NCBI GenBank assembly: GCA_963924565.1
Contig: OZ004613.1
Span: forward strand, 7,068,001-7,132,000
Direction of reading: 5' to 3'
DNA: 64,000 nt
From: Ascidiella aspersa
Taxonomy: Eukaryota
Shown: positions 10,762 to 63,927 of the stretch, piece by piece
How positions within the stretch are numbered: position 1 is the first letter of the stretch
Layout of the letters: each line of letters starts with the position of its first letter
Program-made: the position numbers and the translations under genes
Notes under the pieces: generated by a model
The model's input: the letters and a program-made list of their open reading frames with translations, nothing else
Told to the model about the DNA's origin: nothing
Databases searched by the model: none

Positions 10762-11272
10762 GTAGAGTAAAGCGACATCATCTAAATAATGTGTAAAGAG
10801 TTCAAACTTATGATAAGAGTGCGTACCAAAACTTCATTATTAAGAACTTGTCGATTTCTTGACCTATGTGGCTTTGAAGTTTGTTTTAACGCTACATTAC
10901 AGATCCGCCCGTGGTGTATACTCGGCAATTCGTGTTTCAGCACAATTAAGGTCAATTCAGAAGCGTAATGATTGGAGGTTGTAGTAAAACGTAATAAAAA
11001 TATCGAATGCCATACAGTAGTACGTATCATTTTAAAAGTTTCGAATAAATCTTCGTTGATTTTCGATGTTATAAATGGTTAAAGAGTTCGAAACGTTCGA
11101 AATGATACGTACTTCTGTGTGGGCTGTGATATTCTTATAAAGTCAATTTACCTGGATTGTTTAAATTAAGTTTAAAAAGTTAAAATTTTATATAAAAGGC
11201 GGCATATTGCCCCGAACTAAACGAAGAATTTTTCTATTTTTTAGCTTTATAACATAAAAAAATTCAAGAAAA

Positions 11273-14200
11273 ATGGTCTCGCGGAAAAGCCTAGCCGTCA
11301 TTTTTGCCGTGTGCATTTTTCTGACTCAATGCGAAAAGGCGGAAACGCTCCGTTTAAAGCGAACACCGACGATTCCGCAAGAAACGGGGACCCGACTTAC
11401 AGTAAACAACGCCACACAAACAACGCCGTTAACCGACAACCGGTTCGGACAACGGGCAAAAGGCGGAAACAACGAAACGCGGAACAGAAGGCCGGAATAC
11501 GGAGCCGAAATTGCGGAAGGGATTTCCGCAAATGAAGCGCGAGGAATGAGAAGATCAAATGTGCCGGAGAGCGCGAACGAATACGGCTCTGTGTCGCGAC
11601 TTCAGCGCAGCAAGACCTTTGTAACGTGGCTGGCAGCCTTTGTTCAGGTTTGAGTTTGAATTGCGTTTTTTAAACTTCGAAGTTCTAAGTTAAGGTTTAT
11701 AGCAGGGAGCACATTGTAAGTAGCTCGGTAAAGTTTAATGCAGGGGTAGGCAACCTACAGAGCGCAAGCTGCATCCGGCCCGCCAACTCAAACTGCGCAG
11801 AAGGTCAATCGTTGTATTTTTTTGTGTATTTTAACTGTGTAAATGGATAAAAGTTTTTTTGCACACTAAACTAGATTAGCGATCAAATTTATCGCGTTTC
11901 TCTAAAGTATTTTTGTTATACCTTTCCATTGTGATAATGGATGACGCTGTGTTGACTTGAGCATAAAATCAAAGAAACGCGTGTTTGTCTTTACAAGTAG
12001 GCTAATGAGACCGATTTTAAAATGCAAAAAAAAACTAGCTACGCCCCTTATGTTAAACTAAACGCTTTACAGAAGTATCAGTTAAAATTCATGACGGCTC
12101 GCCGGACCTTTCTAAGTTTGGGTCGGACCCGCGACTAGGAAAAGTTTACCGACCCCTGGTTTAGTGTATAGCAGGCCTACACAACACATAATTTACAAAG
12201 TAACATGATATGAAAATTCATGTTTTATATTTCAGAATATTTTTCCACTTGCCCGCGGCGTACCGGGAAGCGCAGGCAAATCTGATCACGTTTTATTGTT
12301 CAATGCTTTTAGTTAGATTCCGAAAGCGTTTTCTTCTAAATTTCAGGCCGAGATAAGTGGTTCCTAGTGAGGGATCGGTTACAGGATTTTCCGCGGGTGC
12401 ATTGGAAGTTAGGAAAGCTGTTTTAAAAATATTGCTGGAAAAAAGGAGACTTTTTATTTCAACCACAGTTTTAAAATGAGACATTTTTAAGTTGAATACA
12501 GTTTTAAAATGAGGCTTTTTTAATTCGGCTACAGTTTTAAAAGACAGGTAAATAAAAGCGTCCGTTAATTTAACAATGTCTCGTAAATAGGTCAGAGTAA
12601 AAAAAAATCGGAAAAGGCTATTCACCCGTACATCTAAGTAGTTCAAATCAGCATTTAATCACTAACGGGTGCAAGGTAAACTTCCTGAGGTTACTTCCCG
12701 GCTAACGAATCATTTCAAATCGATTTTCTATGCAAACTCCGAAAAATACAATATGATATTACCACCATCCAAATTCAAACGCTAACCCTGGACCGTATTG
12801 GTGCAGGCGTAAAAAAACGATCAGGTCAAATAGCCGTAAAAAATGGGAACCACTGCTTTGCGGCAGATTTAATAAACACGGCGAAAATCACATCAAGGTT
12901 TTTTTGCAACGTTTTAAAACAAATTAAATTAAACAATGTAATACAAAAACGCGTACAATAATCCGCAGACCTTCATCAAAGGCATCAACTGCAAAGCGGC
13001 GAGACGATATTTCACGAGCGAAGCGCGATGCGAAATGGTGAAACGAACACCTTTCCACAACATGAGGTTCTACGGCACACAACGAGAACTCAACGCGGTG
13101 TATTCGGTGGTGAGTTGATAGTGTGATATAATGTAGCAGTAACCTATGCAGCACTTTAAGCTGCGCCAAACTTTGTCCGCAGACACAGATACATTTCGTC
13201 ACCGCTGAAAAAAATGAGAGACCACAACTATTGCTTCAAACCATTAACTGCTAGTCTTCTGCTGTAGTCACAAAAATAAGACTAAAATACCTTAAGTAAA
13301 CACTGTCCCATTTGCCCAAATTGCATACCTATACTAAGATATAGTACTGTATATAGTAAAATACGGCAAACTTTGTCATTCTATACCAGGGGTGCGCAAT
13401 CTGCCAGATGCGGCCAATGCAAATTATGCGGCCTGCGACCTATTTTACAAACAGGTCACTACGCCATTCTTCATATTTTTTGCCTATTTCAACTAGTGAG
13501 AAACAAATTTCTTAAGTTTTGTTCCTGCATCGAGTGCAAGTTGTACTTGGACAAATTTTTAATTGCAAAATACGCTAGTTTTATACCTGATCAACAGTCG
13601 TTGTTGTTATAACAAGATGCGTGAAGTCTACAAAATTAATTTAACAGATCTTTCTGAGTTCAAAAAATGTTCTCTATAAACAGCAAGACTTAAAATGCAC
13701 TTAGAGCGACTCTATAGATACCTCTTCGATAACTGCGCGCGCCTTTGTAAAATTAATTTAATAAATAAAAACAGCAAGACGGGCGTAAAAAAAATTATAT
13801 TTAATTTGCTAATATTCGAGATCAAATAGCCACACAGCTTGGAATACAAAATCAAAGACGTTGGTTGTAACTACATCTGTTAACTTAAAATAACTTTTAA
13901 TCATGTTTTCTTTACTTATTTTGTCAATCTACATCAATCAATTTCTTATAAAATCTCATTTTAGGCCCTACACTTCAAAAAACTGTTATTTTTAAATAAG
14001 TTGGACCTAAAAAGTTAAAAAATATCGCTGCTAAAAATTTGAAAAAAGAAGCAACTGTCACTCACTTTTTCTTATTAAAGGCGATTCCTGAAGGTCGTTT
14101 GCGCGACCTTGCATCTCACCACGCGGTGGCAGTAGTGGATCCCTTCCCCTCTGCCAGCTTCGGTCACTTGGTTCTTGTTTTTTACGTCGACGGAATGACA

Positions 14201-17200
14201 AAGCTGGCCTGCTTCGAACGAAAGGGATTGTACATGGGTAAGGTTAGGCTTAAACATTGGGGCAGCTAAATGAATGTTAAATTTTTACATTGAAACTAGT
14301 TATTTGTCGATATCTCACAATTTCGATTGCGCGTCTTTAGTTTCTTGGCCAACCATATAGTTAACTAGTTACTTGCAGTCAACGAAATAAATAGCTTCGA
14401 GGGGCACGTCACCATTTCAACCTATACATTAACAAAGAATATAGTCCGTACAATTATTTAGTTTTAAAAACTTTTAGGCTGCAATCCCCTTGACAAAATT
14501 TAACAAAACTTGCGCACCCTTTTCTAATATTATGTTTTGAAGCCACAAGGTGCACATCATGCTTGTTACTTTCCGTGTAGAATGATCTACATTATTCTAG
14601 CAGTGCTTACATTAATATAAACATCGCTAAGCGAAATAGGACGCTTAAATGTTAAACTATGAAAATATGCAAAATATTGGTAGGAATATTAAATCCGATA
14701 CAGAAGTCGTTCTTATGTTGAACGATTCGAAAATGATGATACTGGAAACGTTCAAAATGATACCTACTTCTATATCGGCTTTGATATTCTTACTACGTCT
14801 TACTACAATATGAAAAACATGTTTGATATCTGCGGCTTACATTTTTTCATAGTTGTCTGCGATTTTCGTCGGTTATACGTAAGCCTAACACCTTTTTGCT
14901 GACCTAATCGCACGTCAAGTAACCCGAAGTTGTTCGTACAGGCGACAACCTGTGCATCAGCCAAGCGCGAAGGTTCAGATGTCGCAATCACTTCCGCAAC
15001 CAACTGACGCCCGACCAGGTCGCCAAGAAGTGCGAGATCAACTTCATACCGACAGTTTACAACACACAGGAGGAAGGTATGTAAGCTTAGTACGTTTTGT
15101 TGCCATACCGATACCCACAAATTTTGACAAAATCCGATCAGACGCCAAATTTCGTCATATGCTCAAACGTAAAAGATAGATAAAATTAAAACATTGGAAA
15201 TTAAAAAAACACCTGCGTTGCGAAAAATAGCGAATGATGGCAGAAAATTTTGTATTAAATACCACACTAGTATCGGAAGAATGGCGATACTACAACTTGG
15301 TTTCGGGTATATGTATGACCTCCGACCCGATATTATAGGACATTCCTATCTGAAGTGACTATAACAGCCCCTTGTAACCTAACAGTGGCACATAAGGATG
15401 GTGATTTCAAAGCGTCCCTCAGCATGATGTTCGGTAAATCATAAAACACAAGCAACGAAACAGAAATCTACAATTTAATAATGGTTAATCTAATGCTTAC
15501 GTGCACCAACAATGCCGTGTTTTAAGTAATGCAGCCATGCTCAATTGTATTGCGGCTGATCGCAATTGCTATTTTAACAACAAATCACCAATTTACATAC
15601 TTTATTCGGCATTAACTTTCTAAAACAAATTATCTTATAATTATAAATTCAATAAACACCCAATAATAAAAACATTACGTGTACATTACATGTACATTGT
15701 CTGCCTTGGGAATTTATTAGTGTGAAATAAAAACAATTTTCGGAATAATGAAGTGTGAATACAACTGAACTCGAATGTTTTGCAGTGCTTCTTTCGAGCC
15801 TGTAGGCAGTGACCTTACGCAAGTAGCATAACGTGTACCATTTAAAAATAGGAATTTGCCCCACCAGGCAACACAATATTGGTGTAAAAAAAGTTATTAA
15901 ACGACGTCTATTCATCAGGATAAATAATTAAAACGTCGGTTATACCGCCGTTTAGATCAAACGAATTCTATCTATTTACACATTTTGGTTTAATATATTA
16001 TACCAGTTGAATTCTCTAGAAGGTTCATAAACTCAAATTGTGATTTACATATAAAGTAAGCTGTTTGTTCTGTCATAGGCCCAACAAGAGTCCAACAGCT
16101 TGAGTGTATTCCTTACCTTGCCGGTTTTGGGTCATGTCCACTGCAACTTGCTACCGAATCAGAGATCATTGAGAACTGCGAGCTTCAAGCCAACTCAAAG
16201 AGGTGCTACGTTAAGGTAACTTCGCGGACTTGTGACTCTTCTAACGTTTCTAGTAAAACTGTTTATATTTTAACCTCAACCTTAGGCGGCTTTTGACAAC
16301 ACTTGATAAGCTTAAGATGATTTTTAATTTCGGATAATTTTTAAAATGCGATTTAAATAGATAAAATTTTGCACTAAAAACTTTGCTCTACGAAAAAAAT
16401 AATCAAAACAAATTACGGGAAATACCCGTTAAGATAGAAATGGACAATTAATTAGTATAATTTTATCCAAAAAGGGGTTACTAAACATTCCAACAACAGT
16501 CAATTTTTCCGAAAAATAATTTCATTACATTGTGAAAAAATATGTATAGATAAGTACTAAGTACATAAATGAAAATACAAAGAATTTCGTGAAATTTAGA
16601 ATTATTGTTATAACTAGCAAGTATTCAAGTCAAACCCACTAATGATAACAAGACGATTTTAATCAAATTATCAAGGGTTTTTCTGACAAATATGTATTCA
16701 GCGCCGACGTTTCTATCATATAACAGGTAATCTTCTTCAGGGCAATAAACTTGTAACTTTACAGAAGGGTATATATACAGTGAGTCAAACGACCAAAAAC
16801 AAAATAATTAATCTTGTTCTGTTCAGGAGTCAAAAGCCCCAGAAGCGAGGTTGCCGCTGTGTCGTCTCTACGCCCGGTGCGACCACGCCGTGACGTTGTT
16901 CGGAGGGTGGAATGACGTCACTATGTTTACACGTCACGAGGATCACCTACAGCGATTTTACACGATGCTGAAGAGGAACGGATTCAAGAAGCAGAATATA
17001 CAAGTGTTCTATAACGGCAACGGCAATGTTCCACGTGGGTTGAAATTAAATTTTTTTAGACTTGACTTCGAACACAATATAAACCAGTGTCATAAACATG
17101 TCACTTTGAAATGACTTAAGTCCAAGTCAAGTCATTTTAAATAAATACTTAAATAACCCAATATATATTAAAAAAACACTTAATGAAAACCCTTTATTTC

Positions 17201-20200
17201 AACCCAAGCCAATTATCTTAAAGACTAAGTCTAGTCAAGTCATTTTGTCTAAAAGACTTAAGTCAAGTCATTTGAAACCAGTGACAAAGTGCACTTGAGT
17301 CAAGTCATTGACTTAAGTCACTACAACACTGATATAAACTTATATTTTTTTATAATATGACATATGACGCTTAAGAAGATAATTTGCATGGAAATTATTT
17401 ACGTGCGATGTCCAAATACCGTGTTTTGTATGTTGTTAAGATTTCCTCTCGTTGAAACAATGTGACCATGAGAGTTTAGAACTGCCACACTATCGATCAC
17501 TATTTAGGCATGCATAATGTTTTGAAAAAAATTGCAAAATTTAAATAGTTTTTCTTGGCCATTGCGGTTAAGTAAAGGCAATTATTCAGGGATATTTGCT
17601 GTTCCTAAATTGTGACAAAAACTGTTGGCAAAATTAGTTACATACTGCACAAAGGGTATTATTTGCATTGTCTCTAGTCATACAGATTTTTTGTTGGCTA
17701 CTTTCTTGCATAACACTATTGAAACTGATCCTAAAGCCGAGCTTCTTAAAATCGCAGTGGGTGACTCCTACCGCCATGGATTACCAGCAAGCAGCAAGAA
17801 CGCAATCCGTAATCACATCACCACTCTTTGTCGCTCTGCTGTCTGCGTCGACTCGTTCGTGATTTACCTGAACGGACCTACAACGTCGGACGGGTCGATT
17901 CTGCTGTGGGACAATAACGGAGATGGAGAGGTGAGAATGGCAGTGAATTTTTAGAGTGGGTGGTCGGCAGAAATGCACCTTTAGTGTGGAACGTTTTGGA
18001 AGGTTAAATTAGAAGGTAGTCTGGCGCTGGTCTCAAAACCTACCACATCTTCGTCTGGGGGTTTATATTGCTAACATGATTTGGGTTTTGCAGCGAGTTG
18101 ACCATTGGGTTTGGGTAAGTCTCGTATTAGTATTATATTTATTCTCCCATATTTATTTCTTCCGTGTAATTTTTTCGGCGCAGGTCTAGAATTCTACCAC
18201 ATTGTGGTTCGGGGGGTTATATTGGTAACATTCTTTGGGTTAAGGTGCGAGTTAGCGTTTGGTTTGGGTAAGTAAACAAGGGTAATTTGATTCCGACATA
18301 TTTGCAAACGGAAGGCCTTCAGTTCATTCACAACACTAATTACAGCAAAGATTATAAGTGTTTTTTAAATGATCCTTGGGGACCACATGGTGGCCTATTT
18401 ATAGGTTCATGTATATTTCTTATGAAGTTATACTTTTGTTGCTGAGTAGCAATGATGTTTTACCGTTTCAAAAAAATTGTTGTAAACACGTCATTTTAAA
18501 TTGACTTCAATTGAAGTCAGGTCATTTGTAAATGTCCCAGTCAAGTCATTTGTAAAATAACTCAAGTCCAAGTTATGTCCTTTTGCATAAATAAGAAGTC
18601 AAGTACTCGTTATTAGAGCAGAACTTCGACCAAGACAGGAAAGTCTGAAGATTATTTGCCAAAAAGTATTGAGAAAATTAGCGTCGATCTCGGGACGTTC
18701 TATACGTTCCAGGCACCGAATGATGCATCGATTAGAAAGTGTACATACACACAAAGTCACGCAACCCTTAGCGTTATCTTAACTTTCTCCAAGCCTTACT
18801 TACGCAATGGGCCAGCTAACAGCCTACAGGTTGTGTCTGTATATGTTTCCCCAAACAAGATATTCCTGGAATACGTCAGTCGTCAGTGCACGCGCGCTCG
18901 AGACTGACATTTCGTTGTTTAGCTTTAGCGTCCGGTCACGCAGTAAGGCATTTACAGAGGGATACAGGATCTTCAGAAACCAATTAGTACGCAAATATGC
19001 AACTGAAGTTGGGTCTAATCGCGAAAATAAGCGTTTCTTTGGTTTAAATTAGCTTTTTCATAATTTAGGAGACGGGCGCATAGGGAATAAACGAGATTAG
19101 CATATTTCGCAATAAAATGGCATTTGTAGATCAATTTAGCACAAACCGTGTTTTTGTAGAGTGTATAAGTTCACACGCCGCCTTTTTGCTAAAACCTTTG
19201 GCTAATGACGCTTTCGGGTCGTGACCTATAAATCTAGGGAAAGCACATCTACATCATTTTGGAAATAATGTTGCACTGAATATGTGATTTTTGGAAATCA
19301 CCTTGACCTGTACAAGATGAATGTTGACCCCAATTCCTAATCAGTAACAGCAGAAGAGTATTCTGTTTGAAAAAAATATATTGACGATGCCTTTGCTGGC
19401 GAAATATATAATTATATATGTCGTTTAGTATCTATCAATAGTGTCTAACCTGAATAACCAGGCTTAAAAGTTTGTTAACAATATGTTAAGCTTTGGGTAC
19501 AGTGCGAAAAATGAATTCCGTGGTTCTGATAAAATCTTGGACAAAACTGGACAACCACCAGATTGGAAAATACTTAATCAATAGGAAAAACTTTAAATCA
19601 CGTGTGGATGAAACAATAACTACTGTTAGTTAGAATAAAAAAATATTGAGTCCGCGAGAAGTCAAAAAAACATTTGCATAGCCTACACAAAGTAACATCC
19701 TAGATCATTGGTTCTCAAACTTTTTAAAAAACAATACGCAACGGTCCTCTAGCAATGTTTCAAATTGCTCACGGTCCCCTTAAAAATATACACAATTAAA
19801 CACCAACTAACACGTTGTTTTTAATGGTGTCAGTAGGCTTGGTCATACCGTATTTAATATTGTAACGCTAACTAAATCACTTTACTTAATAGAAGTAGTC
19901 ACGAACAGTTTTGAAACAGTGGTCTCACAACCCACAGTGGCAGCACAGCAAGCTGTAAAAACGTAATTCTCATTAGCACAACACAATACTATAAAAATTT
20001 GTTAGGTGCTTTGCGGTCCCAGAAAATTGTCTCGCGGACTCCAAAAGGACTGCGGACCCTAGTTTGAGAACCACTGTCCTAGATCCATATATTGACACGT
20101 ATCCCCGAATGCCCGTCGTGCTAACACGTTGCACGTTACGTGTGGCTCCTGGAATGTAGATTTTTGCGATACGAGGATTGTTTAGGGTGTTGTGGTACAG

Positions 20201-22313
20201 TCGATGATTGCCATCGAGGTCAGATATGGCGAAAGATAACCAAACAGGTTGTAGTTTGTTAAGCGGGAAATTTAGTTTGGCTACGTTATACAACATTCAA
20301 TCACAACGAAAGGTTGGCACGACCTGTTTAATGGAAGACTAAAAGGCTTATCCCCATATTAACCACCAGTGTAGCCATTGTGACGTCCAAGTCAAGTATT
20401 TTTGAATGGTTAACAAGTTAAGTCCCAGTCAAGACATAATTAAAACAAGTCAATTGCAAGTCAAGTCCTTGTCCAAAAATGAAACGTTAAAGTATTAAAA
20501 TTGGCAAGTTCGTCCCATTATGAGCAATAACTCAAGTAAAAATGAAAGAAAAACACAACATATAGCAAGCAAATAGCTCAATGTGCAAAACTTAAGATAA
20601 ATAAGCCAAATTTATAAAATATGCTTAACGAAAACATTTCATTTTCAAGTCATTGGTCCAAAAGGCTTAAGTCAAGTCAAGTCTTTTAAAAACAGTGACT
20701 AAAGTCAATTCACTGTCTTAATTCTTTGCAACACTGCTAACCACGCTTCCTTGTTTATCTAATTTAGCACCAGCCTATGCAAACTAGTTTCTATACAGAG
20801 AGGCCCGCAGACAATTTTCCAGGGGGGCAATACGAATATATACACACAATTTAGCTTAAATATTACACATATAAACAATAATAATAATCGCATTTAAAAT
20901 TCCAGGGGGGGGGGGGGGGGGGCAAGTGATTAAAGAACTTACAAACACTGTTTCTTGTTTAGAAAATACAGCGCTCGCAAAATGCGTAGAATGCGCCTTG
21001 CCTGTCAATCACGACATTCAAGCCCCGCCCTAATTTGCGTTCTAACCCAATTTTCTAAAAAACAAACTTAACATCAATAATATTTTTCCCACAAACTCAG
21101 GCCCAACCGACCGAGGCCTACAGCGTCGACGAGTTCCTTGATGACGTCACAGACTGCGAGGCCAATCACTTGTTTGTCTTCGCCGAGCAGAGCTACGCCG
21201 GAATTATGACGTCACGTATGCGCGCCCGGATCCAGAACCCGGTGTACCCGGCCACAAGGGCCTCGTGGTCCCGCGTTGTGCTGCTCTCTAGTGGCGGAGA
21301 GTTCGAGTACTCGTGGGGCGATGACGTCATTAGGCACTGGACCGGCCTCTCGCCAATGCTGCCCGTGTCATGGGCCTATGACGTAAGAAACTGCTTGGTT
21401 ATATTTTTTAATTTTTGAATTTCAGCATTTTGTGCAGAAGCTGGCTTGTCTCATCGCTTTAACTTAATGTTAAGCTGTTCTCCCGGATTTTACCTTGACT
21501 GTGGTTATTGGGAAAAGTTTATTATCTTTAATATGAATGTAATTTTAAATTATCAATTCATATTAAACTTAAGTATAGTAAAAATTATACATTTCCCGTG
21601 GTTAGTGTTTCATGCTAAAGATAATAAATTAAAACGGCGCTTGTCTAGAATCCGAGCACTTTTTAACAGTAACGAAACGAGCTGTCAAAATTGAAATTAC
21701 AAGGAGGAAATAAATATGGTGGAACAAATATATTAATATTCCTTGACCCACCCAAACCCAAACGCTATCTCATACCCTAATACATATAATATTAGCAGTG
21801 TAAACGCTCGGACGAAAATGCTAGCTTTTTGGACCGAGATGGTTTGGATGAAGTCTGTTATGTTACAATAAGAAGTGTAACCCGATTAACATATGCAAAT
21901 CAGAATGTATGATGATTTTGGTTTGTAAACCAGCGCCGAATTTCTTTCATGATCTGTGATAGGAAACACACAGCACAGAAAAATATTATATCTACTGTAT
22001 TTAAATTAATATACTTAATTTATAAATTAATTTATACAGCGAAAACTATAACTCTTGCGTTGTGTTCTAAAGTAATTTATAGTTTCCTGCGAATTTTCAG
22101 AACATCGGCTACACACACAGCACCACCAATATGCTGCAGAAGCGACGGGCTCAGGAGTACACCTTGTACGGGGCTCCCATCATTTACGGGTTACCCGTAC
22201 TCGCCGAAAATCCGACTGAGTTACGACGCGAGTACATGGGCTGCCAGGATCTACCCGCCGCTGAGTGGATACTCGAGTTCAACTCGGAATTTAATGAAGC
22301 GAGTCCCGAGTAG
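11273..22313 (+). CDS. Secreted protein (~606 aa) with Cys-rich region and C-terminal legumain/peptidase C13-like (clan CD fold) domain; probably catalytically inactive
   Basis: Exons 11273-11647, 12969-13109, 14081-14237, 14942-15076, 16079-16215, 16827-17034, 17758-17930, 21101-21382, 22101-22313. All introns are GT-AG and the phases join into one ORF. Signal peptide MVSRKSLAVIFAVCIFLTQCEKA. The motifs HAVTLFGGWN..RHEDHLQRFYTMLKRNGFKKQNIQVF, DSFVIYLNGP and HLFVFAEQSYAG align by eye to legumain AVLVAGSNGWYNYRH..AYQIIHRNGIPDEQIVVM, DHVFIYFTDHG and MVFYIEACESG. Confidence 0.85.
11741..12158. mobile_element. hAT (Buster/Charlie-like) MITE
   Basis: Termini CAGGGGTAGGCAACC / GTTTACCGACCCCTG; TSD GTTTAATG/GTTTAGTG. 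Confidence 0.8.
12410..12545 (+). repeat. ~30-bp tandem repeat
   Basis: The unit ...acagttttaaaatgagrc.ttttta... is repeated 3-4 times. Confidence 0.6.
17085..17331. mobile_element. hAT-type MITE, GACTT family
   Basis: CAGTGT...ACAACACTG termini with a perfect 8-bp TSD, ATATAAAC. Confidence 0.85.
19706..20076. mobile_element. hAT (Buster/Charlie-like) MITE
   Basis: Termini CATTGGTTCTCAAAC / GTTTGAGAACCACTG; perfect TSD TCCTAGAT. Confidence 0.85.
20367..20736. mobile_element. hAT-type MITE, GACTT family
   Basis: CAGTGTAGC...GCAACACTG termini; TSD TTAACCAC/CTAACCAC. Confidence 0.8.
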
Positions 22314-24583: not shown

Positions 24584-24657
24584 ATTAAAAGTTTTCCAAC
24601 TTGCTGAGTGATTTTTGTCGAAGCGGTGCGCTTCTCAAGCTTTTATCGAATCGCGAA

Positions 24658-42602
<17,945 letters not shown>

Positions 42603-46300: not shown

Positions 46301-49300
46301 CCAAATTGCAGCTCGTTATGCATATCTAACATGAAGAGACTTGGTATGGCTGCTTTTCTGTGATGTATGGTTTATATTGGGTCGATATAGCGTTTTGTGC
46401 AATGTAATTAACTCTGGCAAGAATATTAAAGCCCATACAAACGTAAAGATGTTGAAAATGAATAAAGAGTTATTCAAAACGTTCAAAATGACACCTACTG
46501 CTGTATGGGGTTTGATATTCTTGCTACGTCTTACGACAACCTCCAACCATTATGCCCTAAAATTAGCGGTTGGTTTGACATTTTTTTCTGATTTATAAAG
46601 GATTTAAGTCTTCGAACGTGCAGCAGAATGTACTGAAAGTTCAGGAAACAATTAAATAGGATCTTAAACGGGTACAAATAGCCCTAGCTGCTGTTTAGCC
46701 TAATTTGCATCAACTGAGATTCAAGATTTGGTTTCATTCAAATTGTTACCGCTGAAGGTACTATTTCGGGGACTCCTCATATATAGCTTATGGCCTACAT
46801 AGACTACAAGCTAATAGCTTCAGTAAAAGCGCAACAGTACAATTTCCTTTTTCGTTTCAGGTGGAAGACAATTGTGGCTAGTTGTCCATTAGTAAGTATA
46901 GAGTTGTATTGAAAGGAAAACTTTTATGTGTTGCTACCTCCCAACAATCGCCCTGTAGTCTTAATCACGACAGGAAATAGTTTGACGAATACGTTGCTCG
47001 ATTGCAGCGCCGAACAAATGTGCGATTGTGTGTGCTGTGAGGGTATTGTAGCCTAATAGGCAGGCTCTGTCAAAGAAAACAAATTGCCTGTGATCAAACC
47101 TGAAGCGTACTACAGCTCTAATGAAACCAGAAAAAGAGAAAAAGGTGATTTTAAATAACCTGTGGTTTCAGAAAACAGTTCCTATTGCCATTTACTTAGA
47201 ATACCCCGAAAATCTAAGACCAGAAGTGAAGGTAAAACAAACTATGGCAGAAGTTGGCGTTTTTGTTTTAATGAGCCAAAGTTGTTTCCGGTTTTAGGTA
47301 TCTAGGTTTATAAACGTGGTTTGGATTCAGCTGTTTTTTGGCCGGCCCAAACCCAATAAACCTGTTTTTTAAAACCCAGCTGAAATTAGTTGCGAGCCGT
47401 TTTTTTGTATAAAGCAGTGATTCTTAACTGGGGTGCTTAGCACACTGTGGTGCCAATTTTCAAGCTAAGGGTTGCCTAAATGCATTTTAGATTAGATTCG
47501 GATTCCAATTTGATTTGAGTATAGTTCTTGATTTAATTGATTGTGTTAGTGCAATAAATCAAAAACAAATTTCCCTCATTTTGTCCAGTAGATGTGGGCT
47601 GTTTTTTTTATATTAAGCATCACAGTAAAACTTCTGAGCGAAATGCTAATAAAAGGAGGGTACAACCATTTCATTTTTGTCTGTAGGGTACCTTTCGCCT
47701 AAAAGTTGGAAAACCACTATTGTACCTTAAGTGCTAGCCTCACAAAAAATCTCAACTTAGTATGTTTGGCAAAGCAAAGATTCATTTACGTAATGGAAAA
47801 GTCAAGCGCACGCCCAGCAAAAGTAAACCGCGAGTCGTCTCAGTCAATAACAAACCTCAGCAAGTCATTTAGGCAAGTTTACGCTTGTGCTGAATGTAGT
47901 TGAACAGACCTCTCAGTAGGGCTGATTAATGAATAACTCGCGACGGCTTGCTGCCTGTGCTGAGGTTGTTGTTATAGGGCGCCTGGCAAAAATGTGGGGC
48001 GGTTACAACGCACCGTTAGACGCCAATGCTAATTCGCGCGGGCCTAACTTTAGTTTCAAAGGCCATTACTGTAGTTTCGGGACATTTTTTTACTTTGGCC
48101 AATTAAGTCAGTGTTTTAAATAACTAGACTTGAGTGTTTTGAAAAAGACTTATGGTAGACTTAAGTCCATAAGTCAGATTTGGGCTGAAATTTAGTGTTT
48201 TGATTGAATATTATTTTATAAAGTGGGTATTTTTTACTGAAGTAAATAAAACGTAGTCTCATGACAATATTTTACTTTTGGCACTTATGTTTGGAGACTT
48301 TTGGAAAAAAGACTTACGTCAAAATACTTAAGACTGAAATTTAGTAGCTATTTGCATTAAATATTGCTTTATACATCGGGCTTCTTCATCTTAAATTTTG
48401 AACGTAAAAAATTTGTTTCTATATGTTGCGTTTTTGTATGTTTTTAGTTGAGTGAATACCCATTATTGAACGAGTTGATAATGTTCTTTTAAGTTTCAGT
48501 ATTATGTCACAGACTTGCATTGGAGTTGACTTGCTCCTATGATGACTTGCGATCTGTTAAAATTACTGGACGTGTACTTAAGAGTGTTTTTTAATAACTT
48601 TTTTGAAACATGGAAAATAAGAAGCCAAATTGATTGATGTAAAATGTAACGGAATTTTTTCAGCGGTAATATGAGGTAGCCAGTTTTCTGTCAGTTTACG
48701 TCAGTTTTCGGTATTGAGGCTTTCGCATAATTAGATTTTCTAATGCGTATTGATCAGGCGCCTTAATCGACTGAGCATAAGCCCCCAAAATGAAAAAAAT
48801 ATAGGTTCGTATAATGATACACATAGTAAAATATATTTTTCGTGATAAATCGCCTAAAGCTTAGTGCTGTATACAACAGACTATGTTTTAGTCGACGTTA
48901 GTTAACAATGATTTAAATTTTTTACAGGCAGAATGATCCTAAATTTGCCTGCGCAGCTGTTTAGCCATTTTTGGGGCCACATCAAGAGTTCAGTTTACAG
49001 ATATTACAGTAATTGAAGAGCAATTTCTGTAACTTCTATGATAATGATTAAATAGAAAAACTTTATAGTTCAGAGGTATCCATATAAATGAGCTAAAAAA
49101 GCTTCAACGCAACAAAAAAACATTTTTACCGAAAAGTAATTACGGATTTTTCTAGACAAGAGATTCATTTTCTACAAATTGACTTGTCACCGAAACAAGG
49201 CTCGTTTTCAGTCACGCCGGTTTTGTTACGTCACGAATGAACGAGTGTTGCCTTTGTTACGTCACGAATGAGCGCATTGTTGCCGAAACCGCTGACGAAC

Positions 49301-52300: not shown

Positions 52301-55300
52301 AATAAATTAGGACCACTTTATATATTAGAGTAAATTTAATATTCATTTTTGTTAAGAGGGTAAAACATACAAAAAAGGTTAAGAACCCCTGATCTAAAAT
52401 GTAACGTTATGATAGTAATAGACAACACTAAAAATTCAAGAAACCGTTCGTATTTCAAAGGGCGAATTTGTATGCTTTTAGATTAAAAATAACCCGAGCC
52501 CCGAAAAAACGGCACGTAAAGCGGAACTGGATTCAAAAAGTTTTTAAAAGGCCGTTTGGCATTGTCAATTTTTTGCATTCGCTGTTTTTCCAGCAGTACT
52601 TTTACACAATACGGTCACAAAACCTGTGAGATCACCAAGGCAAGTTTAGTTCACTGCTAGCGACTTACAAAACGAGTCACGTTTCGTAATGTCGTGATTA
52701 AACGTGCTGTTTATCATTCATGCGGTACCACTGTTTTCTATTTTTGCTGTGTGCTCACAATGGCCCGTATTGTGACGCAAAACAAAACAATTGTGACGTT
52801 GTACAAAATTAAGTGGCGACGTTAAGTTAGGGCTTGAAAGGTACAGCTAACTGATAGCCTATAAAGTTAAAACTAATGTTTTTCAGCTTAAGGAAAGTGT
52901 GTTATTTAGCTTTGAAGCTCATAGTTATAACTTTCATCGTAATCATGTTTTTCATAGCTCTAGAACTCCTTTTTACCGGAAAATTGGCAAAAAATATTGT
53001 ATTTCTTTTGAACTGGCTTTTAAACTGGATAAATTGTCTAGGGTGTGTTAAAAACTGTAAAAACGCAATCCAGCCTCTTGTAAGCGATTATGCAGCAACT
53101 AATTTGAGATTTATGTTTTATATTTATATTTTGTTATACACCTAAATAATGAACAACTAAAAGTATGCGTCGTATTTAACCTCCATAATTAGAAATGTTT
53201 TAGTCGCGGGTTAATGTAAAGTTTTAAATTAGAATGTGACGACAATCGTTTTATTATCTACTTTATTATCGGTGGGGAAATAAATAGTACAGTAGTTACG
53301 AACGCCAGATTCGAATTTTTGTTAAACTATCTTTTACAGAACATTTATTTCGTTTAACTTTAAAATAAAGATGAATTACTTTTGAAGGGTTAATTAATTT
53401 CAGGAGTAGGCTAAATAATGAGATATGGTAATGAACAAAAGACTACCAACTTCGTGAATTAAACAGCGTATTACAAACTTAATAAATATATATCGCGTTC
53501 TAGGTACGACTGTTACGGAAGGCTGTGCTTTATTAGTTGTAAAAACAATTGTTGTGTTTTTAACTTCGTTAAAGGAGAAAAATGCGAGTTTTTTTCGTAT
53601 CGTTAATGTAAATCAATAAATCAAACGGTGATAAGAACTCTTAAGACAATATTTGTTAAGTCAAATAGGGACTGTAACTACAGGTTGTGTCTGTTTAAAT
53701 GTGCAACAACAATATTGTGCTTTTGGCGTCGTTATAAGACAAAAAATATTGTGTTCACAGGGCCAATGTAGGTAACTTTGTAGCTGTTTGTAGCAAAGGG
53801 TGGTTGAAGGAACACTTTGAAATCATTTGAATGACGCACCTGTGTGCCACAAGCCTACCCTGCAAGCATATTTGTCAGTTCATCGGAACGCCACTGAACC
53901 TAATCAAACTTATCCAGATTGTAAGTAAAAGGCGATTTTAGCCAATATCAATTTGGCTGGACAGATTCTATTTTGTATGCTTTTTGAATTAGGGTGTTCA
54001 TGGATCTCCTTAAGCCAGTTCACGTACCCCAAATGGGTACATGGCCCACAGTTTAAGAACTCCTGGTTTACAGGCATAACTTTGTCTTGAAGTCGTACTG
54101 ATAATAAACTACCCCCACGATAAATACATGAGAAATACTCACCCTTCAAACCAGGGCTGGGGAGCCGGAGCCGGAGCTGGAGCCCGGAGCTCGGAGCTAA
54201 GCATTTTCTCTGGAGCCAGAGCCGGAGCCGGAGCCATTGTTATTATTTTTGTGGAGCTGGAGCCGGAGCCGGAGCCATTTTTATTATTTTTGTGGAGCTG
54301 GAGCCGGAGCCGGAGCCCTTTTTATTATTTTTGTGGAGCTGGAGCCATTTTTCAATTTGTGGTGCTAAAGCTAAGAAATTATATTTTGTTCCATCTCCAA
54401 TGTTAGTTAGCCAAAAGCAATTTGTAAAACTTGCCATTGAATAAGTGACTGGTGGCACCGGAGCTGGAGCCGGAGTCATTGGGTGTGTGTTTGATGGCTC
54501 CGGAGCTGGAGCCGGAGCCAAAGGATATGAGTTTTACTACTCCGGAGCTGGAGCCGGAGCCAAAGGATTATGTTTTACGACTCCGGAGCTGGAGCCGGAG
54601 CTAATGCAATTTTGCGGTGGCTCCCCAGCCCTGCTTCAAACAGACGGCACCTGCTGAAGGACTAGAGGCAGTCGCTAATTACTTTCTTATCGTTTTGTTG
54701 CTCGCGTTTATTTCTGTTTTTTTTTCTTTTTTTCCTTTCCATTTATTGTACGAGCGTTCAGTGTCAATCACCCTGACGAAGGCGGCTTGTATAGGTTGCC
54801 GAAACGTTGGTTAACAATTACAATTACCAGAGAAGCTGTTTTTGATTTATATTACCATGCCTGGTAGCAACAGTTTATATAAGTCGTCACTATTATAATC
54901 CCAACATCCGAATTGTTAATCCTTCGCTCCAGATTATCATCTTGATCGATATTTGCTCTTAGTCCGAACTGTGTTTTATTCCGTCGTTATTGTTGTTCGT
55001 ATATTGGTCTTATGTTTTGGAGCCCGCTTTTGAACGAATTAACAATAAACTATATACCCTGACACATAAAAAAACTCACCCTTTATAAAGTAGTCATTAA
55101 ACAATCCTAACATCCTAATTGTACCTCCTTTATTCCAGATCTTCATCCTGATCGACCTGATCGCCACCGAGTCAGTCTTCCTCTTCCTAAACTCGATTCA
55201 GGTCGACTGGAGGACCGGAGGATTCCTGAGCTTCGACCTCCAGAGAGTGATCCTCTGTCTCACGCTCCTGACAACCTCCGCAAGCCTCGGAGTCTCGTGG

Positions 55301-58027
55301 TGGTTGAGGAGGAGCAAGGATGAAGAGGAGAAGAGATGCAAGTCCTGTGGAGGAGCGGAGAAGAGTGGAAGGATAAAGTGGAACAAAGGGACGACCGTGG
55401 ATAAGTGCGACTGGGATTTCGCGGTGAGTAGTGAGTCAGGGAAGATAAACAAACGAGTATTGCTAGTGCTGGGATAAGGTTTACTTTTGCGAGTAATAAC
55501 AAATGTTGCGAGTTAGGCATGTCCGATACCCGATATTTTGGACAAAAAGTATCTCGATCCCATCCGATACCAAATGACGTCATTGCTATAGCCAAACAAA
55601 TACCAAGTCAAATGCGATTGGGATTTCGCGGTGAGTTTAGCGAGTTAGGGATGATAGATAAACGAGTATAGCTACTGTTGAGATAAGGTTCGCATTTGCG
55701 AGTAATAACAAATGTTGCGAGTTAAACATGTCCGATGAAAACGTTTAAACTAAATTTCCGATATGTGTCCGATTAAAAAAAGAACTATCATAAACTTTAG
55801 AGCATAATGGTTGGGGGTTGTAGTAAGACGTAAGAAGAATATTAAAGACTACGAATGATGTTGAAAATGAAGAAATAGATATTCGAAACGTTCAAAATGC
55901 TACTAACTTCTGTATGGGCTTTGATATTCTCGTAATACACCTGAATGCGGTCGTAAATAAACATTTCTCGTATTCAACCGGTACTCGCACCTTGGCGTAT
56001 CCGCACTAAATACAAAAACTGTACTAAAACTCGCAATCAGAGATCTCCGATACTTGACATTATATTCCCGATAGCTAATACCAAATGACGTTATTACTAT
56101 GCTCAAACAAGCACAAATGAAATTGAACAGTTTAAAGGGATTTTTTAAAGTTTTTACGTGAAAATTTGCTGTAGGTTTAAGAAGTTCAGTTACTGTTATT
56201 TGTTAACCGATCTTTTTCTGATAAATTCACCTTTCAAGGTCTTTCCCATATTTATTTAGTTGGTATGGGATCGGCAACGATACTAGCACTTGACATCGGG
56301 TATCGGCCCCGAACCGATATTATCGGACACCCCTAGTGGCGAGTTAGGGATGCTAAATAAACGATTTGCTATATACTGTTGGTATAAGGTTCACATTTGC
56401 GAGTAATAACATTGCGAGTTTAAAAGTTTCCAGCACACTGTTTGTATTTATTGAGGATGCGCTAAAGAAGGGGTAGGTTTTGCGAATTGAGTTCGACAAA
56501 TGTTTGCATTGAAGTATACGAGAGCATTATTTTTAATCAGATAAATTTAGAAATCAAGTTTCGTTAAAAGATACCCATCACTAAACAAAACATTTAGTGT
56601 AAGTCTAGAGAACCTATTACCACACATATCGGGAATTTTATTTAAACGTTTGTACCACACGTTTGCTGGGAACGCATTCATTATAAAAAGAAAAGGTTAC
56701 AAGAAAAAAAAGATTGACTATACATTTTAGGAATGCTCTATAAATAAGGGAAGTTTCCTAGGAAATGGTATTAATGTGTAATTTTTTGTCCTACTATAAT
56801 GACATTCTGAGCGTGAAATTTTTTAACACTTTTCCTGTTTACTGGAAATGAGTTGGCTACTATAGGGCTCGGTACAAGTATTGGTCTTTTTAGTAGCTTA
56901 ATGGTATAAGTTAGATGTTTTATAAATTTGCAATATGTTGTTTGTTGATCGGAAGTAATTTAAAGTTAGGTTGGTTTGTCGCACCTTAAACCTTTTAAAA
57001 TCGATTATAGATAACGCAATCACTGAGTTCGTTGTTTGCATTTTTATCTTGTAGGATTACATCCATTCCCTCCTAAGCGCCTCATCGTTTATCGTGTGTG
57101 CTGTTTGTATGATAGCCTACGTACCAGACGACTATCAGCATCCCGTAGAGGTAATTACCTATTAAATATATTTCTCTCTTATGGAAATCTAAATCTGCGA
57201 TTGTTGCATTTTTGTAAACGATAATTTTTTGGGAGCATAACAATTGAAGGTTGTATTAAGACCTAGTAAGAACATCAAAGTCCATAAGAATTAGGTAGCA
57301 TATTGGACGTTTCAACTAACTCTTTATTCATAAACATAGACTATGTAAAATGATACCTACTTCTGTATGGGCTTTCATATTCTTACTATGATAGTTTAAT
57401 TTTTTTCATAATTCATTAAATAAGTGCGAGTTAGTTGAAGCACCCTTCGGGAACCGTAACTGCGCAAAACAATTATTCGAAACGTTTAAAATGCTACCTA
57501 CTTCTGTATGGCTTTAGTATTCATTCCACGTCTAACTATAACCTCCAGCACCGCATTATACACCAAAGTTTATCTAAAGTCATACCCTCCTCAAACAGCC
57601 CAGATATATTTACTACTATTTTTTAATTAGTATTTTTCATAATTTATCGAAAAAGCGTGAGTTAGTAAACGCACCCTACAACATCCTGCGCAAAACAATA
57701 CGCTCATAGCACTACAGTATACCTTCGATTTATTTTCAAAAGGTGGGAATCAAGGTTCTCAGCTTTCTCCTTGACCTCATCCTCTGCTTGCTCTTCACAA
57801 AGTCGTGCATGTCGTCCTACTTCCAGTACTACGGACCAGGCGACCTGTGCGAATGCGAAGCTCGACTCGTGGCCATCTACGACAGCTCAAGTGCGTCGTC
57901 TAGCGGTGGCGGATATTCGGACGAAACGACCGCCGACGAAGACTCGTCGCGCATTTCGCTGGTCGCCAAGAAGTCGAAGCGGAAAGGCGGAAAGACCTAC
58001 ACGATGCTCGACAACGAGACTTCGTGA
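43305..58027 (+). CDS. Uncharacterised ~226-aa membrane protein with three predicted TM helices
   Basis: Exons 55139-55423 and 57743-58027 are clearly coding (GC-rich, strong splice sites, phase 0). Upstream exons 43305-43384 (ends cg|gtaagc) and 46861-46891 (tttcag|...tta|gtaagt) splice in frame but are less certain. Hydrophobic segments: WKTIVASCPLIFILIDLIATESVFLFL, VILCLTLLTTSASLGVSWWL, VGIKVLSFLLDLILCLLFT. Confidence 0.7.
45213..45529. mobile_element. hAT (Buster/Charlie-like) MITE
   Basis: Termini CAGTGTTTCGCAAC / GTTGAGAACCACTG; TSD GTGTATAG/GCGTATAG. Confidence 0.8.
46415..46560 (+). mobile_element. Family D repeat (representative copy): degenerate hammerhead-like head plus ~80-bp tail
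   Basis: Consensus TGTTGAAAA-T-GAATAA-agag-TTATTC-GAAA-CG-TT-CAAAATGATACCTACTTCTGTATGGGCTTTGATATTCTTACTACGTCTTAC. Other copies at ~3003-3075, 10958-11138, 14676-14808, 40935-41030, 55795-55935, 57248-57390, 57472-57560, 61852-61966, 62449-62562 and 63555-63642. Confidence 0.75.
47415..47719. mobile_element. hAT-like MITE, degenerate
   Basis: Termini CAGTGATTCTTAAC / GTTGGAAAACCACTA; no clear TSD. Confidence 0.5.
51996..52391. mobile_element. hAT (Buster/Charlie-like) MITE nested in a GACTT-family remnant
   Basis: Termini CAGACTTTCTTAACC / GGTTAAGAACCCCTG; perfect TSD ATCTAAAA; subterminal palindrome ggggtaaatttacccc. Confidence 0.8.
54152..54633. mobile_element. Young hAT-type MITE with GGAGCC/GGAGCT hexamer arrays
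   Basis: Perfect 15-bp TIR CAGGGCTGGGGAGCC / GGCTCCCCAGCCCTG and perfect TSD CTTCAAAC. Confidence 0.9.
54770..54880 (+). mobile_element. Penelope-like pLTR fragment (family C) with intact minimal hammerhead motif
   Basis: ACC-CTGACGA-A-GGCGGCTT-gtat-AGGTTGCC-GAAA-CG-TT-GGT. The tail tgcctggtagcaacag recurs at ~25106 and inverted at ~23240. Confidence 0.75.
55514..56335. mobile_element. CCGATA-family hAT-like element(s), rearranged; related copies at ~24030-24380, 29130-29420, 30975-31375 and 43500-43850
   Basis: Termini TAGGCATGTCCGATA / TATCGGACACCCCTA, the shared internal motif ataccaaatgacgtcatt, and multiple ccgata/tatcgg repeats. Confidence 0.6.
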
Positions 58028-61116: not shown

Positions 61117-63927
61117 TCATTCCTGTATCGAAAAGGGGGCGACCCCTCTCAAGCGCGGGTAAACACCGTTGACGTCACAGGTAGGACTGGTGGGTGACGT
61201 CATACCGGGGGCGTCCCCTTGCTGCTTGAACTTGAGCGTCAAGTCCCTAGCGGCGCTGCCTAATGACTGTGGGTCGCCCATCTCTGGCAGCGAACCAATA
61301 GGAGCGCCGTTGTTGTTATTATTTGAATTTGAGTTGTTATTGTTTGAATTGTAGTAGTAGGCGCTGACCGAGGCGGCCCGCTGCTGGCGCTGTTGGGCGA
61401 TTTCGGCCGGGTCTGGCGCCCTGAAGGTCGACATGAGTTTGGCCACCGGGCTGGGGGGTACGGTGGGGGTTTGGACCGGTTTTGGGACATTAGAAGTCCG
61501 TCTGACCGAGTTGAATTTGCTGGAAGGCTTGCGACGAATGGTGGCCGTGCCAGGGTTGTTGATCTGGGTAGATATCACTGCGGAAAGAATACGGGATTTT
61601 ACAAATTTAAAGCTTAAAGTGTTTTTGTTTGTTGCAGAAAAATGGTTAGTTAGTGTTGACATCTTCTGCAAAGAAGATTGGCAACAAAGCCGTTAACTTG
61701 AAGTTTTATTAGGAAAAGGCAAGAATGGTTTGACTTGGACTTATTTTTCATTCCTGGACTTGTACTCTTTTTGAACAGACTTGTTTTAAGCACTGACAAA
61801 AGTCCTACAAAAAACTGTACTCATTTAGCATTAAGTAGAGTTTTATCGACTATGTTGGAAATAAATAAAGATTTATTCAAAACGTTCAAAATGATATCTA
61901 CTTTTATATGGGTTTTGATATATTCTTAAAACGTCTTACCACAACCTCCAACCGTAATGCCCCTAACAATAAACCATTCAAACTATCACCAACCAGCAAT
62001 TTACGCTGACCATATGATGCATAGCTAGAGATGAATAAAAAAAATCTGCGTTGTCATTAACTGCCGCATTCTGTACTAATCGCTGTTAAGTGAAATTCGC
62101 CAATATCGTTTTCGCATAGTTTCAAATTTACCACCAATTTTTTTACAATCAACCAAATAAAAACATCATTTTTTTGCAACTTACTGGTCCCGGTCGAAAG
62201 ACCAGCGGTGGAAGCTGGTCTTCTGGTGCGTGGATTGCCATTATGGTGTTCGCGGGACCTGGGCATGGTCGAGTACATGTTGATCTGCTGGTCCATGGCG
62301 GGAAAGGCTGGTGGCAAGTGCTGGTTGTTTTGCGAGGATGGATGGTCGTCGCCGTTGGTCGAACCATAGTCGGTGTCTGCACCAAAACATTTCAAGTTAA
62401 GCTAATTTGCCGCAAATTTTTAAGTTGGTGATTGTTGCAATCAACTGATGCATAATGGTTTGAGGCATTGGTTGGACGTTGGAAGCGTATCAAAGCCTAT
62501 GTATAAGTAAGTGTCATTTTGAACGTTTATACAGTAGATAACTCTTTATTTATTTTCAACATATTAATAAGGCACTGATTCTGAATATACTCTAATACAG
62601 GGGTCGGCAACCCCTGAGGTGATTTTTCAGGGCACGCCAAATTATTTAACGCGCTCGTTAAATCACCTTAAAAAATGCAACCATTACATCACTATCACAT
62701 CATTAACATTATTATTACATGAATAACACTAGCGCCAACTAAACTGTTGCACACATTTCTAGTTCGATATGCAGTGTTTGTGTCACAAATTAGTGTCTTA
62801 AATGGTGTATTTAATATTATTCTTTTGTGGGCGTTATACTTGTTGTCTACGACTAACCGTTTGTATTAAGTCACAATAAATGCCCTAAAATTGGCGCGAT
62901 GTTTACTGCGGTAAAGCAGGGCATTCTACATTAAAGTACGTACGTGTGTTTTTGTGCGACTGAGAAACCTAGCTTAAAGCGAAACTGTAAGTTAACACTT
63001 CTAAAGTTACCGGCTGAAAAACGTTGAAGCGTATTCCAAAGTAGCGGGCACAGTATTGTGTTCGTGACAGTTTGTTTTTTTCAGCAGGGTTAAGGAATCT
63101 TTACAGAATTTAACTTATGAAATTAGGTTTAATGGCGTCTCCCAAGATACGTAAATTAGATGTCAGATGATTCGCAACTTAGATGTCAGTAAGATCACAG
63201 CAGGGTTGCGGAGTCGGACTCGGGACTCAAGTAAGACTAGGTAAAACTACCCGAGCCCGAAATGTGCGCATGCGCATAACCAAATTTCGAAACTATTTTC
63301 CATGAGCCCTACAAAGGATTGCGGATTATCCATCTTGTTTTATTTACGTAAATCGGTGAAGTAAAGGCTGTTGAGTCTGAGTCGGACTCGGTTGTTTTTA
63401 ACCGACTCCGCAGCCCTGGTTGCCAGTGCAAAACCAAACATACAAAAATGTGCACGCGAGTTGGTAATATTTTGAAATTATTCATAATTTGGCACACTGT
63501 ATACGAAAGGTTGCCGAACCCTGCTCTAATATATATCTTTAGTATCAGTACCTTCTCAACATGTTGAAAATGAATAAAAAGTTATTCGAAAAGTTCAAAA
63601 TGATACATACTTCTGTATGGGCTTTGATATTCTTACTACGTCCGTAAAAGTTTATAATACTTATTTTTTTTAAAGTGGCGCACAAACGCTTACCATGCGA
63701 TGCTATGGTGTCTTCCGAGCAAGCTGGAGTTGTATTCTGACTGCTGTAGCCGCTACTGCTGCTGTACTGAAGACTGTGGTTGCTGTTCTTTCGGCCCAAG
63801 GTCATCGAAGCAAAGTCACCCGGTATCGGGGTGGGGGCTGTCCCGTACAGGGGCTGGGTAAGCTGGGGCTCCTTCTTGGGTAAAGGGATATGGGTAGGGT
63901 CCGGGGGACAGTGGCCGTTGGACAGTA
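61117..63927 (-). CDS. MTSS1: MTSS1/MTSS2 (Missing-in-metastasis, I-BAR family) homologue; last three coding exons, gene continues beyond the window
   Basis: Exons 63927-63694, 62376-62185 and 61577-61117 in consistent phase. Motifs SLQYSSSSGYSSQNTTPACSEDTI, STMPR, RRPASTAGL, PGTATIRRKPS and QTPTVP match the vertebrate MTSS C-terminal region (SLQCSSGYSTQTTTPCCSEDTIP, STIPR, KRPASTAGL, PGVATIRRTPS, KTPTVP). Confidence 0.9.
62598..63523. mobile_element. hAT (Buster/Charlie-like) non-autonomous element carrying a nested GAGTCG-family MITE (63201-63418)
   Basis: Termini CAGGGGTCGGCAACC / GGTTGCCGAACCCTG with perfect TSD CTCTAATA. Inner termini CAGGGTTGCGGAGTCGG / CCGACTCCGCAGCCCTG. Confidence 0.85.

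Follow-up and report, generated by a model that had tools for sequence, protein, structure and literature searches.

What is the short repeat that recurs through this locus with a hammerhead-like head reading TTGAAAA in place of CTGANGA, and why does it so often take the form of a hairpin? We call the repeat family D, and refer to the whole 64-kb stretch of DNA analysed here as the window. The original prediction had counted about 11 copies, and 11 insertions are indeed found (Table 1), 10 of them within 10958..63642 and one at ~2978-3095; the cluster tally is 10 with the insertions at 57229 and 57467 merged and 11 with them counted apart. Hairpin form is frequent, as had been proposed: six of the 11 insertions have arms in both orientations, and five fold with z <= -3.3 on both strands (vs mononucleotide shuffles). 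The window is animal DNA and carries a Su(H)/CSL-type gene on its minus strand; the insertion at 40937..41030 is upstream of Su(H)/CSL-type exons.

The core reads TTGAAAA-T-GAA at 46452, 55861 and 63564 and the more degenerate TTGGAAA at 61855, just as predicted, but the description of these heads as well preserved has to be given up: 46452 carries G12A, 63564 carries C15.2A, which breaks the ACGU palindrome, and 55861, although the core nucleotides of 55861-55892 are intact, has a mismatched helix II. Private core lesions are present in three of the four heads (46452, 61855 and 63564), and the window copies appear from their sequence to be mostly dead. The hammerhead position numbering used throughout, and the role of G12, are in part general background.

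Table 1. Insertions of family D mapped in the window
Feature	Position	Strand or arms	Remarks
Old family D stub, degenerate head	2978..3095	+	outside the range of the original prediction
Head-to-head insertion, core decayed	10962..11144	long arm - with tail, 10962-11064; short arm +, 11065-11144	fold z -6.0 / -6.6
Head-to-head insertion, 5' truncation in both arms	14681..14808	both orientations	arm mapping, folding
Head-to-head insertion	40937..41030	both orientations	~137 nt from donor-like site on - strand
Full stub starting G+ATG (46447-46561) with short inverted arm (46419-46445)	46419..46561	+	core 46452-46483, G12A
Head-to-head insertion	55795..55930	truncated long arm -, 55795-55847; short arm +, starting G+ATG	core 55861-55892
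Head-to-head insertion without head	57229..57388	both orientations	arm mapping, folding
5'-truncated stub with tail	57467..57568	+	arm mapping
Stub with tail, core A6G and G12A	61852..61966	+	core read
Stub with tail, insertion disrupting the G12 region	62450..62562	-	73 nt from acceptor-like site at 62377
Stub ending at ~+82	63561..63642	+	core 63564-63595 with C15.2A; 51 nt from donor-like site at 63693

Family D is the 5' end and pseudo-LTR of a Penelope-like retroelement

The family D repeat is the 5' end and pseudo-LTR of an intact, autonomous Penelope-like retroelement (PLE). Upstream of the repeat, one copy that has an inverted structure of 1 kb passes into a GIY-YIG C-terminus, full elements occur as tandem units 2.67 kb apart on C4 and C9, and intact copies of an 840-aa RT/GIY-YIG ORF sit elsewhere in the genome. 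This ORF matches RVT_1 above the cut-off (E 1.8e-9) and GIY-YIG just under it (E 7e-4, 20.2 bits against a cut-off of 22.6), and has the endonuclease motifs GVIY at 742, CxC at 749-751 and YIG at 755. Its ATG stands immediately before TTGAAAA, so that family D corresponds to the first ~113 nt of the element, repeated 3' as the pseudo-LTR; a truncated copy precedes the full copy in a partial tandem. The element has the marks of an EN+ PLE, namely, a single ORF with RT and C-terminal GIY-YIG, pseudo-LTR partial tandems, an inverted 5'-truncated copy with a tail, and target duplication at AT-rich sites; as regards placement in the Penelope/Poseidon clade, only two scattered cysteines (626 and 699) are present between RT and EN, and our RT tree is one without named reference elements.

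The stubs greatly exceed the ORF-bearing matches, of which there are a few tens. A 31-nt head pattern has 762 exact matches in the 308.6-Mb genome and a downstream 30-mer has 1,411, with none for the reversed control in either case. Bystander insertions, at 18 per 441 kb, extrapolate to roughly 12,600 genome-wide, so the window is richer in family D than average. The family is about seven times more abundant than its canonical sister family. A helix II variant with a U-A swap at pair 6 has only two genomic matches and was rejected as a subfamily, and a metagenome scan gave one short stub and no new lineage.

Two further structures were considered and set aside. A 60-nt in-frame intron running from GTATGG to the AG of the tail was rejected because family 2 lacks the donor and the encoded segment is conserved; in one RNA run none of the joints listed matched this intron, and RNA depth ended before its far side. 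A non-LTR retrozyme would form head-to-tail arrays; a single array was observed, made of 2.6 copies of a rearranged 143-bp unit, and the sampled copies are otherwise dispersed stubs.

The U3:A8 core and its activity

With the flanks held fixed, 762 heads genome-wide read U3..A8, 11 have C3 (nine of these with A8) and none has G8; U3 and A8 are thus jointly fixed, and the consensus is not a CUGAAGA with independent mutations, one of the outcomes that would have overturned the original prediction. Older bystander arms give 10 U3A8 and one U3-gap among 11 scorable. In family 2 the heads among the 100 matches listed of 127 are C3G8 (96) or C3A8 (4), never U3, and the sister PLE families, each tied to an RT/EN ORF, have CUGANGA at the same position. 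Invariant in a gapless alignment of seven family heads and four window copies are U4, G5, A6, A9, the extra U, G10.1, A13, A14, G16.2 and U16.1. Eight of the 11 pairs show double changes, 3:8, 2.1:1.1 and 2.2:1.2 among them, and the share of cells that pair is 87.6%, as against 21-46% in slid controls; these covariation counts come from related sequences and are not probabilities. In helix II, 6 bp long in family D, four of the five scored pairs change on both sides across families. Helix I of family D has 2 bp followed by a mismatch, and both of these pairs covary across families.

From the CUGANGA of the sister families, together with the double changes in helices I and II, the family D motif can be recognized as a minimal type I hammerhead. 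It has the core, a Watson-Crick 3:8 pair, A15.1-U16.1, an H17 that is U or C and never fixed as G, the extra 9/10.1 nucleotide, G10.1-C11.1, the covarying helix II and a palindromic 15.2-16.2. The reading frame that crosses the motif is closed after two codons in family 3, where the core is therefore not maintained by an ORF. Rfam covariance models run over the window at E <= 5 gave 11 matches, none to a hammerhead family; the same scan also misses the canonical CUGAAGA motif at 3556 in the window.

In the RT tree (14 rows, midpoint root) families 2-4 form the sister group of family D, and families 5-7 branch outside them. Of the other families, those with a readable core have C3:G8, one old copy with C3A8 excepted, and this nesting among C3:G8 families makes U3:A8 the likely derived state in family D. 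On the sequence evidence U3:A8 reads as a lineage variant and not as decay from CUGAAGA. The proposal of a natural U3:A8 hammerhead variant is accordingly borne out in part, as far as joint fixation and homology to C3:G8 hammerheads go. Its premise, that a compensatory U3-A8 pair can stay active, agrees with natural U3-A8 hammerheads reported active in vitro in the accessible text of Perreault et al. 2011.

We consider the motif likely to be a weak ribozyme, of doubtful activity. The predicted helix I duplex is unstable, at +0.9 kcal/mol for family D, compared with 0.0 for the older subfamily and -0.8 to -4.8 for eight non-D families, making it the weakest of the 10 families or subfamilies compared. 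Minimal hammerhead motifs are described as cleaving weakly, and as dimers only (PMC4209133, in part), and the hammerhead of the PAc element as needing the element's protein and being dispensable for insertion (PMC11167929, in part). A footprint of cleavage at +36 had been suggested by a head-biased sample and is unsupported in the downstream-anchored one, where seven of 93 arm ends fall at +36-38 (two of the seven being indel artefacts) vs 24 over +9-35. Family 2, with a canonical core, likewise shows no cut-site pile (1 of 66 ends at +33), so such an absence does not separate a live motif from a dead one. The family D core is in frame behind the ATG and reads Leu-Lys-Met, so coding may help to keep it. 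The predicted cut site lies 26 nt after the A9-U-G codon in family D, and an in-frame AUG follows 5-14 nt past the cut in families D, 2 and 3.

The motif might then be a catalytically dead relic in lineage D, in which U3 and A8 drifted and which is kept as a protein-binding hairpin, as start-site context or as the first ORF codons. This is a real possibility, though we lean against it. Helix I is down to 2 bp, transcripts starting at +1 would keep only 3 nt of its 5' strand, the cut site leaves no pile, and insertion by PAc is reported, in the available text, to be unimpaired by hammerhead mutants (PMC11167929); TTG/CTG and AAA/AAG are moreover synonymous in the frame of family D, so that both 3:8 changes are silent. 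A relic free to drift is nonetheless hard to reconcile with a 3:8 change that is exactly the one preserving pairing, or with young and old D subfamilies that keep all the other core positions, A15.1-U16.1, H17 and a perfect 6-bp helix II, and the missing pile is equally a property of family 2.

Insertion ends, copied template and host transcripts

Among young copies the 3' end is constant and borders on a short direct repeat of flanking sequence, and the 5' end differs from copy to copy. Of 85 tail-bearing arms, 56 have a target duplication of 9 bp or more, vs 4 of 85 controls (a count that includes overlapping loci), with a mode of 12 bp and 74% AT; the duplications measure 10–14 bp. The 5' ends were read in a downstream-anchored sample of 99 arms from the first 100 matches listed, reduced to 93 by removing eight duplicated loci. 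Ahead of the ATG the template sequence is ...CTCTCT, which lies 32 nt beyond a TATA-like TATATATA box, and 35 of the 93 arms end at one of two places, 28 at +1 and seven at -2. An untemplated G is found on 25 of these 35; for ends that are internal the figure is 8 of 32 (p = 2e-4 by Fisher's test, in which paired arms from a single insertion are not independent). In a head-anchored sample of 57 insertions, 30 independent ones end at +1, with G in 22 of the 30 (expected 27%, p = 1.6e-7).

An untemplated 5' G is treated, in the part of the L1 literature available, as an accepted sign of cap copying. The G-bearing ends at +1 and -2 would be explained most simply if the pseudo-LTR promoter gave rise to a capped transcript that was copied without being cut. 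An origin of the G in trans-splicing was rejected, since no AG stands at the junction in the template and since the G is preceded by varying bases, as was general tailing by the RT, since internal ends have G in only those 8 of 32 cases. The G is also part of the target duplication in some single-arm copies, which fits annealing of the terminal C. In family 2 the 5' ends cluster only loosely, with 15 of 66 falling between -13 and -6, and show no clear G excess, so the G footprint may be particular to family D. A cap-derived G or twin priming in PLEs is stated in no paper found by a search that missed most subscription journals.

The hairpins of family D are PLE insertion products. We compared the arms of 75 head-to-head pairs, leaving out seven duplicated or array loci and letting a few loci contribute two pairs. 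The long arm mostly ends at +108 to +121 (mode 113) and the short arm mostly at +71 to +87; the peaks lie at 113 and 78-81, which places the two 3' ends ~33 nt from each other. The head is reached by the long arm only in 20 pairs, the short arm only in 24, both in 25 and neither in 6. The arm that extends to the head may be the long or the short one, so it cannot be that one of them is always a copy of the other, a pattern that fits priming from both target strands; PAc is reported to extend both strands in vitro (PMC11167929, in part). At the polymorphic position 17 the arms are identical in 45 of 50 pairs, vs ~26 expected for independent draws, so that they mostly derive from one RNA or one subfamily.

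That agreement at position 17 would also follow if hairpins arose by fold-back, with one cDNA or an antisense RNA template priming itself and the second arm being copied from the first, as in the self-priming model in print (Arkhipova et al. 2013, PMC3846280, in part); some arm junctions are in fact perfect palindromes. We judge this unlikely. Copying of one arm from the other calls for a constant containment that the 24 short-only and 20 long-only pairs do not show, the two arms of a pair can each finish in G at one shared start position and be separated by filler, and an antisense template gives no reason for a sharp G-bearing end at the sense start. Agreement at position 17 is expected too from a single RNA or a subfamily era.

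We therefore prefer, at a probability of roughly 0.8, to read family D as the ~113-nt 5' end and pseudo-LTR of an intact PLE, holding a minimal type I hammerhead with fixed U3:A8 that is likely a weak ribozyme, its short copies likely reverse-transcribed from capped, uncut, sense RNA. Transcripts would start at +1 or -2 from a TATA promoter in the upstream pseudo-LTR, and the element's RT would prime internally at ~+113 and ~+80, as PAc does in vitro. Priming near the mRNA's own 5' end would yield a stub only, running to the cap and gaining the G, which would explain the great excess of stubs. Both nicked target strands would act as primers, one per site, giving two overlapping cDNAs that are joined head-to-head into the hairpins. 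Cleavage by the hammerhead, after +35, would require a dimer formed through the ACGU palindrome and probably help from protein as well; insertion would not need cleavage, and the window copies would be dead passengers in introns.

A wider proposal, which we advance tentatively as something close to an even bet, is that the stubs are a footprint of PLE replication: a sense transcript, capped and uncleaved, whose start lies 3 nt ahead of the core, would be primed at two internal sites from both target strands, the cap-G cDNAs would be joined head-to-head, and the hammerhead would have been detuned, by U3:A8 together with a helix I of 2 bp, as the family grew. PLE hammerheads may then be brakes or translation switches, and not processing enzymes.

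In one RNA run with the same species label, 1,057 reads fell on the element, nearly all on the stub, with ORF depth < 5 per strand. Of these reads 93% run into unlike sequence, which marks the stubs as passengers in host transcripts. No pile of read starts or ends was seen on the element in this run, whose randomly fragmented cDNA may not show one. The original prediction had placed many copies in introns, 50-200 nt from splice sites; seven of 10 copies do have a splice-site-like motif, identified by eye, no more than ~200 nt away, RNA depth in the window being too low to confirm the exons. Orientation alternates among the copies at 63.6, 62.5 and 61.9 kb, which by folding prediction could pair either inside an intron or over a 192-nt exon (-96 and -81 kcal/mol vs about -26 and -31 shuffled).

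Such pairing and proximity to splice-site-like motifs are what one would look for if the host kept the intronic hairpins to affect splicing or editing. We think this quite improbable, given that the copies decay privately, that the splice-site distances stand without a null expectation, and that A>G in RNA is not clearly above other substitutions (A>G 4 and T>C 13 of 49 mismatch places on the element, with non-editing changes similarly raised and without matched DNA). That the repeat is a DNA-transposon MITE resembling a hammerhead by chance, as its high copy number, short length, long inverted repeats and duplicated target might suggest, is refuted by its continuity and sequence identity with the end of the RT/GIY-YIG element, and by asymmetric arms, variable 5' truncation and many single-arm copies where fixed symmetric ends would be expected, leaving this reading a negligible chance.

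Comparison with known systems

Family D closely resembles the minimal hammerheads of PLE pseudo-LTRs as given in the accessible text of Cervera and De la Pena 2014 (PMC4209133), sharing with them the core, the extra 9/10.1 nucleotide, G10.1-C11.1, a palindromic, loopless helix III, a predominance of solo copies and the occurrence of opposite-strand pairs. The 2-bp helix I is also that of the Drosophila virilis Penelope hammerhead described there, helix I in these motifs being otherwise 4-5 bp, so that family D matches only this atypical variant. The same source has U3-A8 covariation in the Cercyon elements of S. mansoni, with ~1,300 U3-A8 minimal motifs in Schistosoma PLEs. U3-A8 in PLE hammerheads is already known in print, and, as hairpin insertions are a known PLE feature too, the finding as originally written is an ordinary one. 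Schistosoma is a different host and lineage, whereas family D can be compared with C3:G8 sisters in one genome; here U3:A8 appears, from the sequences, to be derived together with the shortened helix I. The cap-G and two-arm footprint is the less ordinary part and is worth following. A single genome here contains an intact PLE that was recently active, young insertions by the hundred that are nearly identical, and several sister families with C3:G8.

PAc, the Poseidon element of Anolis carolinensis (Frangieh et al. 2024, PMC11167929), is like family D in its single RT-GIY-YIG ORF, its hammerhead at the ORF start with a cut 26 nt after A9UG, its AT-rich targets and its use of uncut RNA as insertion substrate, so far as the available text goes. 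In both elements two internal RT starts bound the tail, the outer one 111-118 nt into the ORF in PAc, and ~+113 and ~+80 in family D. PAc differs in having C3:G8, and the available portions of the paper report no untemplated G or start site and no reconstitution of head-to-head formation.

Non-LTR retrozymes (Li, Clavereau and Pollet 2026, 10.64898/2026.07.22.740005, in part) are likewise short non-coding hammerhead sequences related to PLE pseudo-LTRs, but they form head-to-tail arrays, whereas family D consists of scattered stubs, single or head-to-head, whose sequence is almost identical to one end of the autonomous element.

Penelope of D. virilis and Pen of Adineta vaga share with family D the partial tandems, pseudo-LTR promoter, inverted 5' copies and a 30-40-bp tail, with target duplications of 8-10 bp in Adineta (Schostak 2008, PMC2377424; Arkhipova 2013, PMC3846280; Craig 2021, PMC8557442; each in part). 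Penelope is described as having a TATA-less internal promoter and a 5' intron, whereas family D has a TATA-like box 32 nt before the inferred start, and no intron was seen. The ends of family D insertions bear on which RNA strand and form PLEs copy and on what PLE hammerheads do: the Adineta paper, in its accessible text, favours antisense self-priming and leaves the question open (PMC3846280), whereas the family D ends favour a sense, capped template, and the replication footprint, if true, would favour a sense template over the antisense self-priming model.

Family D sequence and copies around an exon

At H17, the nucleotide preceding the predicted cut (family D +35), the youngest copies and the intact ORFs carry C and older copies carry U; either is compatible with H17, and in frame the U/C change exchanges Phe for Ser. 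Family D also occurs in tandem, both as long units, which in those read bear frameshifts near the C-terminus, and as a shorter, rearranged unit (table). Within the window, a predicted exon of 192 nt (62376-62185) in a minus-strand gene has family D copies on both sides, three in all, whose orientation alternates. The middle copy could, as modelled, pair with either neighbour, and such an arrangement could favour exon skipping or circularisation of the exon.

Features in the window and family D tandems elsewhere in the genome
Feature	Location	Strand	Remarks
Family 4 (sister PLE family) head-to-head stub	window 3473-3626	-	core start 3556 (strand given is that of the core); canonical CUGAAGA minimal hammerhead
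Multi-exon gene	window ~11273-22300	+	signal-peptide-like start
Su(H)/CSL-type gene	window ~24660-41900	-	LAG1, BTD, TIG_SUH exons
Arm related to family 4 stub	window 27787-27850		
5S rRNA	window 36147-36265	-	full-length match, 109.5 bits
36-nt coding-like tandem repeat	window 41275-41481		in one low-complexity frame before Su(H)/CSL-type exons
Canonical CTGANGA...GAAACGTT-type motif	window ~54773-54808	+	family with 8-bp helix II; position as we infer it
Region of minus-strand gene holding three alternating family D copies	window 61666-63693	-	
Family D tandem	G000 (genome) C9:23485079-23495660		at least 4 units at 2.67-kb spacing
Tandem of rearranged 143-bp family D unit	L031 (genomic locus) 1633-2010		2.6 copies; adjoins head-to-head junction

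Other genes and hammerhead motifs in the window

Long low-complexity frames precede the exons of the Su(H)/CSL-type gene, and the 5S rRNA match apparently lies within one of its introns. For the multi-exon gene, the six exon frames tested gave no above-cut-off Pfam match. Helix II of the family 4 stub is 6 bp long. Another canonical CTGANGA...GAAACGTT-type motif probably falls within the 94% hairpin of 6553-6747.

The AUG after the predicted cut

In family D and the sister PLE families 2, 3 and 4, an AUG stands 5-14 nt 3' of the predicted cut (genomic sequences L074, L105, L214, L210, L213 and L212), and the N-terminal segment that it opens is similar across the four families. The frame of A9UG, the ATG codon at core position 9, is in family 3 an upstream ORF of two codons. 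The post-cut AUG of these families may be compared with the ribozyme-linked translation initiation of RNA viruses described in PMC13725137.
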